Assembly: GCF_001677475.2 (NCBI RefSeq)
Contig: NZ_CP015229.1
Length of the DNA stretch: 64,000 nucleotides
Source of the DNA: Escherichia coli
Lineage (GTDB): Bacteria > Pseudomonadota > Gammaproteobacteria > Enterobacterales > Enterobacteriaceae
Direction: 5' to 3' (one strand)
The translations under genes were made by a program, and so were the position numbers. Below are positions 20,199 through 26,396 of the stretch, piece after piece. Each line of letters begins with the position of its first letter. Position 1 is the first letter of the stretch. The notes under the pieces are model-generated. The model searched no databases. It had not been told where the DNA came from and saw nothing but the letters and a program-made list of their open reading frames with translations.

Positions 20199-21011
20199 TC
20201 AGCACTCAACAAACTGATGCTGTTCATTAAGGCGATAGCGGACTCCGGCTCGAATATTGTTTTCACCTTCAATGGCGACGGCGAAGCGAACTCTTTCGCC
20301 GTCATGATATGCCAGTGCGGCGCTTCCCCCTGGCCCGAGAATAATTGAGTCGACCACGCCCGTGCTCACTATTGTTGAATCTTCACCGCTGGCAATGATG
20401 TGTACATTGTCGCCGCTGTTGGCAATTCTGGCGTTTGCGCCAAAGCTGGCGATTTGCACCAGGTCACCATTACTGGCGACATGACACCGTTCACCCAATG
20501 TACAAACGCGTACTCGCATTCCGGTATTCGCAATCCGACTACTATCTCCAGCGCTGCTTATCCGCGAAGAATTACCGGTTACAGCAACCCGTGCGCGTTC
20601 ACCGGAGCTGCCAATGTGACTGTTAAAGCCGACACTTCCAATCCGCACGCTATAACCCATACTGGCAATTTGCGCGGCATACCCAGCGGTTGCGATTCTG
20701 GCATTATCCTCACAACAGCCGATGCGAGCATGATCGTCGCTGCGGGCAAACTGACTGCAAAATGGTCTCTCTCCGGGATCTGTGGCCAGTTTTTGCATAG
20801 AAGAAACTTCCTGATGCGCGAAGTTTTCATCCGCCAGCCATTTTTTCCACGCATACTCAACCAGACTCTCCGCCCAGTCCGTATATCCTTCCTCAATCAG
20901 TGCATGATGAATATCGGCATAACTACCGCCGCGTGGGAAATGGCGCAGGAACCAGCGATACATCACCGCTCCGATACGCCATTCTCGCAGGTCTGCTCGT
21001 GTAATGATCAT
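20199..21011 (-). CDS. ydhT: YdhT, uncharacterised member of the ydhYVWXUT operon
   Basis: 270 aa; central region is about 14 tandem nonapeptide repeats. Confidence 0.9.
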   Translation of the reverse strand: MIITRADLREWRIGAVMYRWFLRHFPRGGSYADIHHALIEEGYTDWAESLVEYAWKKWLADENFAHQEVSSMQKLATDPGERPFCSQFARSDDHARIGCCEDNARIATAGYAAQIASMGYSVRIGSVGFNSHIGSSGERARVAVTGNSSRISSAGDSSRIANTGMRVRVCTLGERCHVASNGDLVQIASFGANARIANSGDNVHIIASGEDSTIVSTGVVDSIILGPGGSAALAYHDGERVRFAVAIEGENNIRAGVRYRLNEQHQFVEC

Positions 21012-21014
21012 TCG

Positions 21015-21800
21015 TTAGTGCCGGTGATAGCCATCGACCATGCTTTTAAAGGTTTCGTGTGGCGTACGCCCCGTGGTGCAAAGATAAAGATGACCGAAGA
21101 TAAAAAAGAGGCTTATAAATGCCAGAGCAAAATGCGCCTGCAATAACCAGTATCTTACGCCAGGAAACACATCTCCCACGGCTTGCGGATAGAGACACAG
21201 CAGCCCCGTCAATAGTAACAACGGCAGCAATCCATACATGACACCAACATAGGCGACCTGCTGTAAGGGATTAAATTTAGACTGTGTTGTTGCCGGGAAA
21301 GGATGTTCTTCCCCCTGCATAATACCAAACAAATAAAATCGCGTTTGTTTTGCCGCTCGCTCCAGCCAACCCTGACGACGAATGCGATAGTGGTGACCAT
21401 TACCCCCAACGGCATTGATCAGAACAAAGCCGAGCCAGCATGCGAGTAACAAAAATCCGCAAACTTCATGCACCGCAACCAGACTTTTAACCGCAGTTGC
21501 GCCCACCAGCGCAAAGTGATTTATCAGCCCACTTGCCAGCAACAATACAAAGAGTAACGCATTCGACCAGTGCCATAATCTGACCGCTTTGCTGTAAAGA
21601 TAAATCTTCTCACCATAATCGGTGACTGATTTCTTCACGCCACGAGCACGAAGCAAGGCATGCAGCCCCAGCACCAACCACATCCCAACCAGCAATACTC
21701 CGGCAATGATCAACCACACCGACCAAAATTCCGGAGTGAACTGTGGCACATAGTTCGTCAACTGGCTCTGAAACTGTTCAGCATGTTGCGACGGGTTCAT
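21015..21800 (-). CDS. ydhU: Membrane cytochrome-b-like subunit YdhU (PhsC/NrfD-like)
   Basis: 261 aa multi-transmembrane protein with conserved His residues. Confidence 0.9.
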   Translation of the reverse strand: MNPSQHAEQFQSQLTNYVPQFTPEFWSVWLIIAGVLLVGMWLVLGLHALLRARGVKKSVTDYGEKIYLYSKAVRLWHWSNALLFVLLLASGLINHFALVGATAVKSLVAVHEVCGFLLLACWLGFVLINAVGGNGHHYRIRRQGWLERAAKQTRFYLFGIMQGEEHPFPATTQSKFNPLQQVAYVGVMYGLLPLLLLTGLLCLYPQAVGDVFPGVRYWLLQAHFALAFISLFFIFGHLYLCTTGRTPHETFKSMVDGYHRH

Positions 21801-22465
21801 ACATTTTCCTTTTTAATCAAATGTTGACCGAACCGGCGATACAGATGCGGTTTCCCGGCACCTGGTAGCTGATATTGATAGTATTTATTTTCCTGCAACC
21901 ACGCCTGAATTTCTGGACTATCTTCGCGACCAAAGATCAATGCGTGCTCCGGGCAGGCGCTGACGCAAATGGGCGGAAAGCCTTTTGCCAGTCGGGACTC
22001 AGCGCATAAATCACATTTATCTGCCACTTTAGTGACAGGGTTAAGGTAGCGAACCTGGTACGGACAAGCGCCAATGCAATAACTGCAGCCAATGCACTGC
22101 GATTTTTCTACCCGCACGATCCCCTGCTCATCACGCCACGATGCCCCCGTCGGGCAAACGTCGATGCACGGAGCATCTTCGCAGTGCTGACATGACTGGC
22201 GAAAAAAGTGATACTGCGTTTCGTTGTCGTTATCGGTGACTGGAATATGTGCTATCGATAAACGGCTTCCCTGAGCGGGGACGTGGTTAGTTTTACGGCA
22301 TGCGCGGGCGCAAATATTACAGCCATTGCACCGTGACTCGTCATGAATCATGGCATACCGAACTTCCTTTTCTTGCCTCGTGTTCGCTAACAGAGAAGAC
22401 GCAGAACCAGTAAAAAAGATTACTGTTCCCATCCCCAGAACAAATTTGCGTCGAGTAAAGGACAT
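21797..22465 (-). CDS. ydhX: 4Fe-4S ferredoxin-like protein YdhX with twin-arginine signal (start chosen at the internal Met before TRRKFV)
   Basis: Tat motif TRRKFVLG and multiple CxxCxxCxxxCP clusters; the track ORF extends to 22516. Confidence 0.85.
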   Translation of the reverse strand: MSFTRRKFVLGMGTVIFFTGSASSLLANTRQEKEVRYAMIHDESRCNGCNICARACRKTNHVPAQGSRLSIAHIPVTDNDNETQYHFFRQSCQHCEDAPCIDVCPTGASWRDEQGIVRVEKSQCIGCSYCIGACPYQVRYLNPVTKVADKCDLCAESRLAKGFPPICVSACPEHALIFGREDSPEIQAWLQENKYYQYQLPGAGKPHLYRRFGQHLIKKENV

Positions 22466-22528
22466 CTGATTATCCCCTAATGCAGTGGCTGCAACTGTCC
22501 ACCCTATCCATGACATCTCCCTGAAATT

Positions 22529-23188
22529 TCAGGGGTTCTGAAACTGCTCTACCTCGAACCATTCGCATAAGCCATACGCCTTGCCATAGGTCATAAATCG
22601 CTCGCTAAACAAGTACAACACCGCCGTCGATGACTCCACCTGCCGTATATCAGCATATTCAGGTGCAATATCCATCGCGGCGATCGCGGCTTCGATCTGC
22701 GCTTCCTGGAAGTAATATGGCGCTTGCAACAGCATGGCGACTTTGTAAGGACGAGGATACGTCTGGCACTCAAAACGAACGGCGTGTGCAATGGCGCGAC
22801 AAATGTCCTGCTCCACAACTTGCAAAGACATCGCCGCGTAGTTTTCACTCATGGCCTGCGTTGAGTAATAGTAATCATCCTGGCTTCCCGTCATACACGC
22901 GATATCCGCGTAGTCTCCGTTCTGCTTAATGTTTTCCAGCAAAACTGACAGTTCCTCTTCTGCAACCGAATAGGGCGGCGAGAGAAACACGGCGCGCGCC
23001 ACCAGCTGCCCAGCCGCAGAATGCTGGCGAATGAACTCTGCTAGGATTTCAGCAGGTTCTTGTTCTGTGATGTCTTCACTTACCGTATCAACGGGGTGAC
23101 GCATCCCCTGCAACCATTGCCGCTTCGCCTCGTCAATTTCGCTGACTTCCGCTAACGGCAAGACATCCTGATGGTTCATCTCACCCAT
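22529..23188 (-). CDS. ydhW: YdhW, uncharacterised protein
   Basis: About 215-219 aa ORF; start ambiguous between the first and fourth codon. Confidence 0.85.
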   Translation of the reverse strand: MGEMNHQDVLPLAEVSEIDEAKRQWLQGMRHPVDTVSEDITEQEPAEILAEFIRQHSAAGQLVARAVFLSPPYSVAEEELSVLLENIKQNGDYADIACMTGSQDDYYYSTQAMSENYAAMSLQVVEQDICRAIAHAVRFECQTYPRPYKVAMLLQAPYYFQEAQIEAAIAAMDIAPEYADIRQVESSTAVLYLFSERFMTYGKAYGLCEWFEVEQFQNP

Positions 23189-25294: not shown

Positions 25295-25314
25295 GATTTT
25301 TTCCTTTGCAAGAT

Positions 25315-25941
25315 TCACACAGTAATATCTTTCCACTCGATAATTTTTAACGCCCCTGTTGGGCAGGCGTTTGCGCATTCACCGCATAACACACATTTCG
25401 AGGATTTTTTACTTTCGGTATTTACGGTGGCCATCATCCACGGGCATGCCGTAGTACAGGCGCTACAGCCAATACAACGTTTATGATCGACGGTAATACA
25501 CCCTTCTTTCTGCTGCCAGGTCATCGCACCAATCGGGCAGACGTTCATGCATTGCGGCTCTTTGCATTGACGGCAGGTGTCCGCGGTATAGTTGAGATCG
25601 CCATACAGGCCGCCGCCAGAGCCAACCCCGTTGTCGCCAAAGAAATAATTGCGATGGATTTTGATACGGGAGAAGAATGTCCCTACTGAGCCATCGTTGA
25701 AGTTGGTACAAGAGATTTCACAGCGGTGGCAACCCGTGCATCGCGCACGTTGGGTCACCAATACCCCTTTGGGTGTATTTATCAACCCTACCGTGCCGCT
25801 ATCAATATCTTCCTGTTTGCAACCCAAAAGTGACAGTAACGCAGGGGCAATTGTTAGACCAGCGAGGCCTTTTCCTGATATACGCAAGAATTCTAATCGC
25901 GTTAAGCCAATATCTAATAGTGGACGATCAACCGGGTTCAT
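25315..25941 (-). CDS. ydhY: 4Fe-4S ferredoxin-like protein YdhY
   Basis: 208 aa with four Cys-cluster motifs. Confidence 0.93.
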   Translation of the reverse strand: MNPVDRPLLDIGLTRLEFLRISGKGLAGLTIAPALLSLLGCKQEDIDSGTVGLINTPKGVLVTQRARCTGCHRCEISCTNFNDGSVGTFFSRIKIHRNYFFGDNGVGSGGGLYGDLNYTADTCRQCKEPQCMNVCPIGAMTWQQKEGCITVDHKRCIGCSACTTACPWMMATVNTESKKSSKCVLCGECANACPTGALKIIEWKDITV

Positions 25942-26143
25942 TTATTTCGCATCCTCTTCGCAAACACAGTGCTGACAATTCAGCAGCCTGATATTAAGCA
26001 TTCAACTAATACGCTGCTGACTCTGTCCCCAACACCAGATATTTTCCCTAACCCGATAGTGTATGAGAAAAGATTTAACGCTGATAAACTAATCCTTTAT
26101 GGTTAGGAGAAAAAATAATGTGATTATTCTGAGCTCTTAACAT

Positions 26144-26157
26144 TGATCGTTATCAAT
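26144..26157. promoter_or_regulatory. FNR box upstream of ydhY
   Basis: Perfect TTGAT-N4-ATCAA (TTGATcgttATCAA) in the AT-rich region upstream of the operon. Confidence 0.7.
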
Positions 26158-26396
26158 TAAAATCACAAAGCAAGAAATTATAAGTGAACTGATATTTATT
26201 ATCATTTGAAATAAATTTAACTTAAGCAACAATTATTTGTGACGTTCATTGCAGAAAATAAAAATAACATTATCGCTATAAATTAAAATACATACCGAAA
26301 TTCGTATAATTTCAGCAGTTGTTATTTAGAATGATTAACTGGACTGCAACTGAACTAAGAATATCAGGATGAAGCTTACCGCCTCATCCTGAATGG

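Follow-up and report, generated by a model that had tools for sequence, protein, structure and literature searches.

Conserved FNR half-sites and a degenerate twin-arginine motif in the ydhYVWXUT operon of Escherichia coli

Within a 64,000-nucleotide stretch of Escherichia coli contig NZ_CP015229.1 (hereafter the window, meaning the whole stretch that was analysed), the minus strand at 20199–25941 carries six co-directional, intact open reading frames (ORFs) that are essentially certain, in both identity and regulation, to be the known ydhYVWXUT operon. Taken as a whole, the operon is best explained as encoding an FNR-activated, membrane-linked molybdenum (Mo) terminal reductase that faces the periplasm, a reading to which we assign a probability of about 0.6. 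The evidence was drawn from the genes and promoter in the window and from a comparison set of 80 YdhV loci from other species, and it includes two patterns not anticipated by the initial annotation of this DNA: FNR half-sites that do not vary between two genera, and a YdhY export signal that has lost its second arginine wherever YdhX and YdhU are present.

E. coli has a single AOR-family enzyme, the catalytic subunit YdhV, which is also the founding bis-Mo-molybdopterin (MPT) enzyme. It belongs to Class V WOR (clade 41), a class that accounts for more than 10% of the family, occurs commonly among gut bacteria and has no member with a known reaction. The literature as of June 2026 assigns neither an activity nor a role to it (PMC13328260), in agreement with the earlier remark that the physiological substrate is unresolved. 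The operon, its control by FNR, NarL and NarP, its cofactor and the open substrate question are all already known from publications, and the present findings add nothing to the substrate question itself. The leads that are added, namely a degenerate twin-arginine translocation (Tat) motif, a YdhW of predicted winged-helix fold as core partner, a predicted YdhT β-solenoid, a likely need for FdhD and the lack of a co-travelling pathway, refine the approach to that question and do not answer it.

Operon identity and layout

The operon runs on the minus strand from ydhY (25315–25941) through ydhV (23192–25294), ydhW (22529–23188), ydhX (21797–22465) and ydhU (21015–21800) to ydhT (20199–21011), the start codons of ydhV and ydhX having been corrected by comparison with K-12. 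Gaps of 20, 3, 63, −4 and 3 nt from ydhY down to ydhT indicate the packing of a single operon. ORFs, family models and identity to K-12 all agree with the initial annotation of six co-directional ydh genes. Protein identity to K-12 spans 93–100% across the operon (YdhY 207/208, YdhV 699/700, YdhX 220/222, YdhU 254/261, YdhT 267/270 and YdhW 204/215 plus a 4-aa insertion), and YdhY, YdhV, YdhW, YdhU and YdhT each pass the NCBIfam equivalog cut-off. The ydh region was found in 5,425 of 5,426 complete RefSeq E. coli genomes, among which the best identity to positions 20000–26700 of the window is only 98.5%. This points to a source lineage without a close representative in that set, perhaps Shigella or a divergent Escherichia clade. 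The whole window is collinear with K-12 1,730,962–1,792,531 at 98.1% identity, one insertion sequence (IS) apart. A 248-aa ORF that runs on the plus strand (20400–21146) opposite ydhT and ydhU is probably not a gene but a consequence of the repetitive codon usage in the nonapeptide repeats of ydhT.

Catalytic and electron-transfer subunits

YdhV contains the domains PF02730 (AFOR_N; E 1e-67) and PF01314 (AFOR_C; E 7e-48) and matches NF007354 with 1374.7 bits. Its [4Fe-4S] cysteines C307, C310, C314 and C558, together with C336, are invariant among 19 diverse homologues extending down to 55% identity. Cys336 has been described as a metal ligand that, apart from YdhV, is found only in BamB, a subunit of benzoyl-CoA reductase; YdhV also lacks the second-shell residues typical of aldehyde-oxidising members (PMC12096430). 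The cofactor is given as bis-MPT with no nucleotide and with Mo preferred over tungsten (W), according to papers that cite Reschke 2019 (PMC13328260, PMC9103625; cofactor data also in PMC12096430).

Two polyferredoxins accompany the catalytic subunit, as initially annotated, each with four Cys4 motifs. YdhY is a WorS-type ferredoxin subunit (NF007382, 434.9 bits against a cut-off of 213) whose motifs, at residues 68, 123, 156 and 183, correspond to 4x[4Fe-4S]. YdhX, an NrfC/PhsB-like 4x[4Fe-4S] protein with 16 cysteines in its motifs, begins with the Tat signal MSFTRRKFVLGMGTVIFFTGSASSLLA (MSFTRRKFVLG...), complete with a hydrophobic (h-) region and an AxA-type cleavage site. The Tat signal noticed earlier is confirmed, and YdhX has been listed as a predicted Tat substrate with an identical signal (PMC7549933). 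Its best NCBIfam model is NrfC, at 246.7 bits and hence under the equivalog cut-off of 377.6, and the DsrO and HmcB models also score; judged by these models YdhX is NrfC-like, not NrfC.

YdhU is a PhsC-type membrane cytochrome b with five hydrophobic segments, matching PF01292 (E 7e-31) and the PhsC equivalog NF011582 (453 bits; cut-off 204). Its earlier description as PhsC/NrfD-like holds for the first half only, PF01292 being the sole Pfam family matched at E <= 0.001 and none of the NrfD family being found.

In YdhW, an acidic protein (pI 4.3), a disordered N-terminal extension precedes two predicted winged-helix domains. No other product of the operon varies nearly as much: relative to K-12 it has 11 substitutions and an SEDI insert, changes that cluster in the disordered extension, against 1–7 differences in each of the other five. 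The possibility that YdhW is a TorD/DmsD/NarJ-type chaperone for the YdhY signal was rejected, its predicted fold being a tandem winged helix and not the all-helical fold of TorD. YdhT, noted earlier as a repeat protein, combines an N-terminal helical domain with about 16 nonapeptide repeats of consensus xRIxSxGxx, which are predicted to form a β-solenoid; neither a GGxGxD calcium-binding motif nor a signal peptide was found in it. Neither YdhW nor YdhT had a family match in the Pfam release searched; in newer Pfam, PF27264 (YdhW_C) exists and PF27195 is recorded on every YdhT homologue.

Distribution and gene neighbourhoods

In each phylum sampled, almost all complete loci contain a YdhY-YdhV-YdhW core. 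YdhX-YdhU is restricted to Enterobacterales, Telmatospirillum and a related metagenome-assembled genome (MAG), and YdhT to Enterobacterales, making YdhX-YdhU proteobacterial and YdhT enterobacterial additions to the core. YdhW may accordingly be regarded as a universal partner of YdhY-YdhV, either an assembly factor or a third subunit, and as it belongs to the core enzyme its co-expression with YdhV-YdhY is called for. A ydhT homologue was not detected in Telmatospirillum (L035) or in one Citrobacter sp. NCU1 copy (L022), both of which have ydhX-ydhU, and YdhT is therefore dispensable for the form of the enzyme that contains YdhX and YdhU. The C. koseri locus as analysed (L034) ends just past ydhU and was left out of this presence call. 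Citrobacter sp. NCU1 has two copies of the operon (L022 and L042).

Outside Proteobacteria the dominant gene order is Y-V-W-fdhD-(tatA)-tatC, and a second type has W-Y-V followed by a polyferredoxin and sometimes xdhC. FdhD-type sulfuration of the cofactor is probably required. For Cetobacterium, the Tat signal of the small subunit and the neighbouring fdhD, tatAC, moeA and tupABC genes have been described previously (PMC13328260). Two further arrangements were observed. A Firmicutes MAG (UBA2530; L066 3576–12088) has a tandem YdhY-YdhV duplication in the order W-Y-V-polyferredoxin-Y-V. In a JGI metagenome contig (L088 4823–10767) YdhY-YdhV of the RR type follows a FAD_binding_2 flavoprotein with a Tat signal, an FMN_bind lipoprotein and a P-loop protein, an arrangement that suggests a link, in some lineages, to flavin-based electron transfer outside the cytoplasm.

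A comparison of neighbourhoods across Enterobacteriaceae, proposed in the initial annotation as a way to find a co-occurring substrate pathway, found none in the 80 loci. The flanks differ between Escherichia/Citrobacter, Budviciaceae, Proteus and Serratia/Brenneria (ula-like phosphotransferase system, glpD, glgP, aminotransferase, EamA transporter) and consist of housekeeping genes. A co-travelling substrate pathway was rejected on the grounds that enterobacterial flanks vary and that the neighbours elsewhere serve maturation or export (fdhD, tatC, xdhC, polyferredoxin). As the neighbourhoods yield no substrate clue, biochemistry on the holoenzyme is needed.

Loss of the twin arginine in YdhY

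The N-terminal signal of YdhY separates the loci into two groups. In all 38 readable loci that lack YdhX-YdhU the motif is the canonical [ST]-R-R-[ED]-F-L-K, often with a lipobox, whereas in all 40 loci with YdhX-YdhU the second arginine is replaced, giving [ST]-R-[LQ]-[ED]-F-L-R. The h-region and the lipobox cysteine are kept in each of these 40 loci, with conservation equal to that seen elsewhere in the protein, and more distant members of the YdhX-YdhU clade have R-Q or R-K. In the window the degenerate signal spans codons 14–41 (25819–25902, minus strand) and reads T-R-L-E-F-L-R, followed by the h-region and an LLGC lipobox-like Cys41. This h-region is moderately hydrophobic, and no segment reaches transmembrane-level hydropathy. 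A shift of the h-region towards Sec-type or transmembrane hydropathy was considered and rejected, hydropathy being unchanged. A third character follows the same division: within the YdhX-YdhU clade YdhW has an N-terminal extension of 49–80 aa with the motif [KR]-R-[RQKH]-[WLF]-[LFI] (KRQWL in E. coli), which is absent elsewhere. All three characters map to one clade and therefore represent one evolutionary event, so that their correlation cannot show causation. No description of a link between the loss of the YdhY twin arginine and YdhX-YdhU was found in the literature searched.

The RR signals, lipoboxes and adjacent tatC and fdhD genes of other phyla point to an extracytoplasmic ancestry of YdhY-YdhV. 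A periplasmic location has been assumed for the E. coli enzyme (PMC4257093, PMC13328260). Because the second arginine has been lost, that location is not established by YdhY's own signal, and the Tat signals of related enzymes are no safe guide to the side of the membrane on which the E. coli enzyme works. We tentatively raise the possibility, which we regard as doubtful, that targeting of the catalytic dimer was rewired in the YdhX-YdhU lineage, resulting either in a cytoplasmic dimer joined to a YdhXU-YdhYV transmembrane conduit or in unconventional export, by hitch-hiking on YdhX or by a split signal involving YdhW. If true, the periplasmic orientation assumed for the E. coli enzyme in published classifications would need testing.

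Proposed function and alternative readings

In the reading that we prefer, YdhU would exchange electrons with the menaquinone pool, YdhX with its four [4Fe-4S] clusters would relay them on the periplasmic side, and YdhY with four more clusters would pass them to YdhV, whose active site (one [4Fe-4S] cluster, bis-Mo-MPT and the Cys336 ligand) would act on a non-aldehyde substrate. The likeliest direction is from quinol to substrate, with the complex serving as a terminal reductase on the periplasmic face. To get there, YdhV-YdhY would either travel along with YdhX on the latter's signal or use YdhY's own weakened signal; YdhW would be an obligatory YdhV-YdhY partner and YdhT an enterobacterial accessory. 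Activation by FNR and repression by nitrate are the regulation known for the reductases dmsABC, frdABCD and ynfEFGH. For the electron path, its direction and the location taken jointly, we put the odds at slightly better than even.

Several points weigh against this reading. Electron-donor enzymes such as hydrogenase 2 are also anaerobically induced and nitrate-repressed, and so regulation does not fix the direction of electron flow. YdhY of E. coli lacks the second Tat arginine, which makes export of YdhV-YdhY a supposition. The putative NarL element downstream of the promoter (described below) has two mismatches and, on its sequence, stands at chance level, and both the transcription start and the NarL footprints are known second-hand, through papers citing Partridge et al. 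2008. Finally, no substrate, activity or phenotype has been published and the holoenzyme has never been purified (PMC13328260), and deleting ydhX left fitness unchanged in a mouse model of infection (PMC7549933).

The alternative that survives best, although we consider it unlikely, is that YdhV-YdhY of Enterobacterales stays in the cytoplasm, with a Tat signal that, like the vestigial one of NarG, serves only for binding or anchoring. In that case YdhU would be the transmembrane link through which electrons pass between periplasmic YdhX and cytoplasmic YdhY, a conduit of the DsrMKJOP/Hmc type and not a PhsABC-like periplasmic reductase. Soluble, cofactor-loaded recombinant YdhV has been purified without export (Reschke 2019, as cited in PMC13328260), which favours this alternative. 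It would also account for the strict division between degenerate motifs in 40 of 40 loci with YdhX-YdhU and R-R in 38 of 38 readable loci without, for the R-Q and R-K variants of further clade members, for a YdhX that has its own complete Tat signal and needs no export partner, and for the scores of YdhX on the DsrO and HmcB models. Against it, the h-region and lipobox cysteine are retained in 40 of 40 loci, which would not be expected of a dead signal, and all of the co-variation lies in one clade and hence counts as a single evolutionary event. Moreover, cytochromes b of the PhsC/FdnI type normally link a quinone site with a periplasmic Fe-S subunit and not with a partner in the cytoplasm, and E. 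coli has a known case of a heterotrimer, PaoABC, that hitch-hikes on a single Tat signal.

Somewhat less probable again is that electrons run in the reverse direction, with YdhV oxidising a periplasmic donor and delivering electrons via YdhY, YdhX and YdhU to menaquinone, as in dehydrogenases such as formate dehydrogenase-N or hydrogenase 2. The latter is regulated in the same way, being anaerobically induced and nitrate-repressed, and PF01292 cytochromes b (FdnI, HyaC) typically serve donor enzymes. Most AOR-family enzymes are likewise oxidising in vivo; yet BamB, the closest catalytic relative with a cysteine ligand, is a reductase (PMC12096430), YdhU has a reductase anchor, PhsC, as its best equivalog, and the Class V enzyme that has been tested lacks aldehyde oxidation (PMC13328260).

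That last result, obtained with CsWOR41 of Cetobacterium somerae (PMC13328260), also bears on the RefSeq name of YdhV, which would make it a genuine aldehyde:ferredoxin oxidoreductase detoxifying aldehydes under anaerobiosis. The AFOR_N and AFOR_C domains and the NCBIfam/RefSeq product name agree with such a role, but it is highly improbable in view of the Cys336 metal ligand, the lack of an aldehyde-type second shell (PMC12096430) and partners that are respiratory and not ferredoxin-linked. When YdhV is compared with solved AOR-family structures, only the N-terminal domain aligns well, the catalytic domains barely aligning with AOR or FOR. YdhV is better described as a Cys-ligated, BamB-like, Mo-preferring AOR-family member for which an aldehyde oxidoreductase role is unlikely; of its initial annotation as an aldehyde:ferredoxin-oxidoreductase-family pterin enzyme, family membership stands and aldehyde oxidation does not (PMC12096430, PMC13328260).

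Regulation by FNR and NarL/NarP

The FNR box TTGATaacgATCAA is located at 26143–26156, read on the minus strand, and is a perfect match, identical to that of K-12. It is the single perfect TTGAT-N4-ATCAA (TTGATcgttATCAA; TTGATCGTTATCAA) in the 64 kb; the initial annotation had the motif right and its position (26144–26157) off by one. Chance alone would give 0.17 such boxes per window, with at least one match in 15 of 100 shuffles; given this frequency and surroundings of 25% G+C, the motif by itself is weak evidence, and it becomes convincing through the conservation of its half-sites and the published K-12 data. For K-12, an FNR site of ydhYVWXUT is tabulated at −42.5, with an FNR chromatin immunoprecipitation sequencing (ChIP-seq) peak and FNR-dependent expression, in a study that cites Partridge et al. 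2008 (PMC3688515). FNR control is thus indeed in the literature, as had been said of it, and the published centre is at an activating position, so that the refuting case named in the initial annotation, a box far from such a position, does not arise. After arithmetic reconciliation of coordinate versions, the peak coordinate 1,752,688 falls within ~20 bp of the box.

Comparing promoters of the YdhV loci, the half-sites are perfect in 25 of 25 Escherichia and Citrobacter loci, across which five spacers occur (AACG, GACG, AGCG, GATG and AATG). At the same location Leminorella and Limnobaculum each have a box with one mismatch, and Budvicia one with two; no good FNR box was found in Proteus, Brenneria, Serratia or Telmatospirillum. 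This pattern indicates purifying selection on the half-sites and not on the spacer. Invariant half-sites around a variable spacer are new here, and the box itself, its −42.5 position, its ChIP occupancy and repression by NarL/NarP had already been published. That the match is a chance palindrome in AT-rich DNA with no control of the operon, as a 15% frequency of at least one match in shuffled windows and local DNA of 25% G+C might allow, is extremely improbable when set against half-sites that are invariant in 25 loci of two genera with one or two mismatches at the same place in Budviciaceae, a fixed spacing to a conserved −10 element, and the published FNR ChIP-seq peak and FNR-dependent expression (PMC3688515).

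The −10 element (C-ATTATT / CATTAT, with −13C; 26114–26120, minus strand) begins 22 nt past the FNR box, which fits a box centred at −42.5. CATTAT is invariant in Escherichia and Citrobacter and appears as xAxTAT in Budviciaceae, the stretch between box and −10 being variable. A generic sigma-70 scan did not pick up the FNR-dependent promoter, which is unsurprising in view of its lack of a −35 element. The scan did pick out a promoter-like ATGATA-17-TATAAT (10/12) at 26177–26205 on the minus strand, upstream of the FNR box and inside the AT-rich promoter island; if it is active, FNR would bind just downstream of its start.

Downstream of the −10 element, inverted heptamers resembling a NarL/NarP 7-2-7 site (TAACCATaaAGGATTA; 26090–26105, ~+3 to +18) differ from TACYYMT-NN-AKRRGTA by two mismatches, one per heptamer, and about three such matches are expected per window by chance. 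The element regains weight only from positional conservation. The conserved CCTAACC(A/C)TAAAGGATTAG that follows the −10 is this 7-2-7 element, its position is kept across Escherichia and Citrobacter, and Limnobaculum has a closer match (TACCCCCttAGAGGTA) at the corresponding place. On these grounds the conserved element just downstream of the transcription start is most likely the NarL/NarP site, repression by NarL and NarP itself having been published (Partridge 2008, as cited in PMC3688515 and PMC3141248). The conserved −10 and NarL-type element at fixed spacing downstream of the FNR box are new here.

In the mechanism to which we commit, an FNR dimer bound in the absence of oxygen to TTGATaacgATCAA near −42.5 exerts class II activation on a weak promoter (−10 CATTAT, no good −35), and nitrate and nitrite switch it off through NarL/NarP, most likely bound just downstream of the start. 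H-NS, SlyA and sigma-S also act on the AT-rich control region. Its upstream part, 26108–26360, has 25% G+C compared with 50% for the window, in keeping with the AT-rich upstream region of the initial annotation. In K-12 the region between ydhY and ydhZ is a 'promoter island' bound by H-NS (PMC3661553), the operon is up-regulated by SlyA, with H-NS data given in the same paper (PMC5797941), and sigma-S prefers the ydhY promoter in vitro, its activity in stationary phase being dependent on rpoS (PMC3141248). On its upstream side the control region is bounded by the terminator hairpin of fumD (26364–26392, minus strand), which has a 12-bp stem and then a T-run right after the fumD stop codon.

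The published −42.5 position implies a 5' leader of ~166 nt (25942–26107, minus strand). No Rfam family, the molybdenum cofactor (Moco) riboswitch included, matched this leader, and its fold z-score is an unremarkable −1.65; a riboswitch or structured RNA was rejected on both counts.

Other features of the window

The insertion that interrupts collinearity with K-12 is a 2,409-bp ISEc10 of the IS21 family (1258–3666), located inside the lhr helicase gene and flanked by an 8-bp target duplication. Its genes istA (2074–3573) and istB (1322–2077) are on the minus strand, and copies of the element in other E. coli genomes match it at 99.9% identity. RNA features with Rfam matches above the gathering scores are STnc550 (8904–9294, minus strand), two tRNA-Val genes (17887–18041, plus strand), an antisense match of HPnc0260 type that overlaps the second tRNA-Val gene and reaches just beyond it (18006–18168, minus strand), RydB (36174–36234, minus strand) and RprA (41839–41946, plus strand).

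Comparison with known systems

The K-12 operon ydhYVWXUT (b1674–b1669) has the same six genes in the same order, an identical FNR box and a core promoter one base apart. The operon in the window differs from it by ~1.9% nucleotide divergence, a leader longer by one base, and the SEDI insert and 11 substitutions in YdhW. With the class II FNR-activated, NarL-repressed promoters of dmsA, frdA and ynfE the ydhY promoter has in common a consensus box near −41.5/−42.5, a weak −35 and nitrate repression (PMC3688515). It is distinguished from them by a box at −42.5 and not the commoner −41.5, by an unusually long leader (~166 nt) and by a control region that is an H-NS-bound promoter island with sigma-S preference.

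Among respiratory enzymes, the thiosulfate reductase PhsABC of Salmonella parallels the ydh system in combining a membrane cytochrome b, a periplasmic 4x[4Fe-4S] protein and a pterin subunit. The ydh catalytic subunit, however, is of the AOR family and not the dimethyl sulfoxide (DMSO) reductase family, it is accompanied by two ferredoxin subunits where PhsABC has one, and the Tat signal is on the ferredoxin YdhX and not on the catalytic subunit. NrfC of NrfABCD shares with YdhX its own Tat signal and 16 cluster cysteines; the membrane partner of YdhX, in contrast, is a cytochrome b and not NrfD, and there are no cytochrome c partners. YdhT resembles the RTX-type β-roll in its nonapeptide periodicity and predicted β-solenoid, a likeness in fold only.

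At the catalytic site the nearest parallel is BamBC, the class II benzoyl-CoA reductase (PDB 4Z3W), which is matched by the YdhV sequence at E 2e-44 and likewise has an AOR-family subunit with a cysteine metal ligand, no aldehyde-type second shell and an Fe-S partner (PMC12096430). BamB differs in being cytoplasmic, in containing tungsten where YdhV prefers Mo, and in belonging to a BamB-I complex; the ydh locus has no bamD-I-like genes. CsWOR41 of Cetobacterium somerae has a canonical RR signal on its S subunit, prefers tungsten and is encoded next to tupABC, fdhD, moeA and tatAC (PMC13328260), while the operon in the window has an R-L motif and YdhX-YdhU-YdhT and lacks adjacent maturation or Tat genes. 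The two nevertheless share the L-S-W core, the homologues of YdhV, YdhY and YdhW being 58%, 43% and 35% identical, with the metal-ligand cysteine kept.

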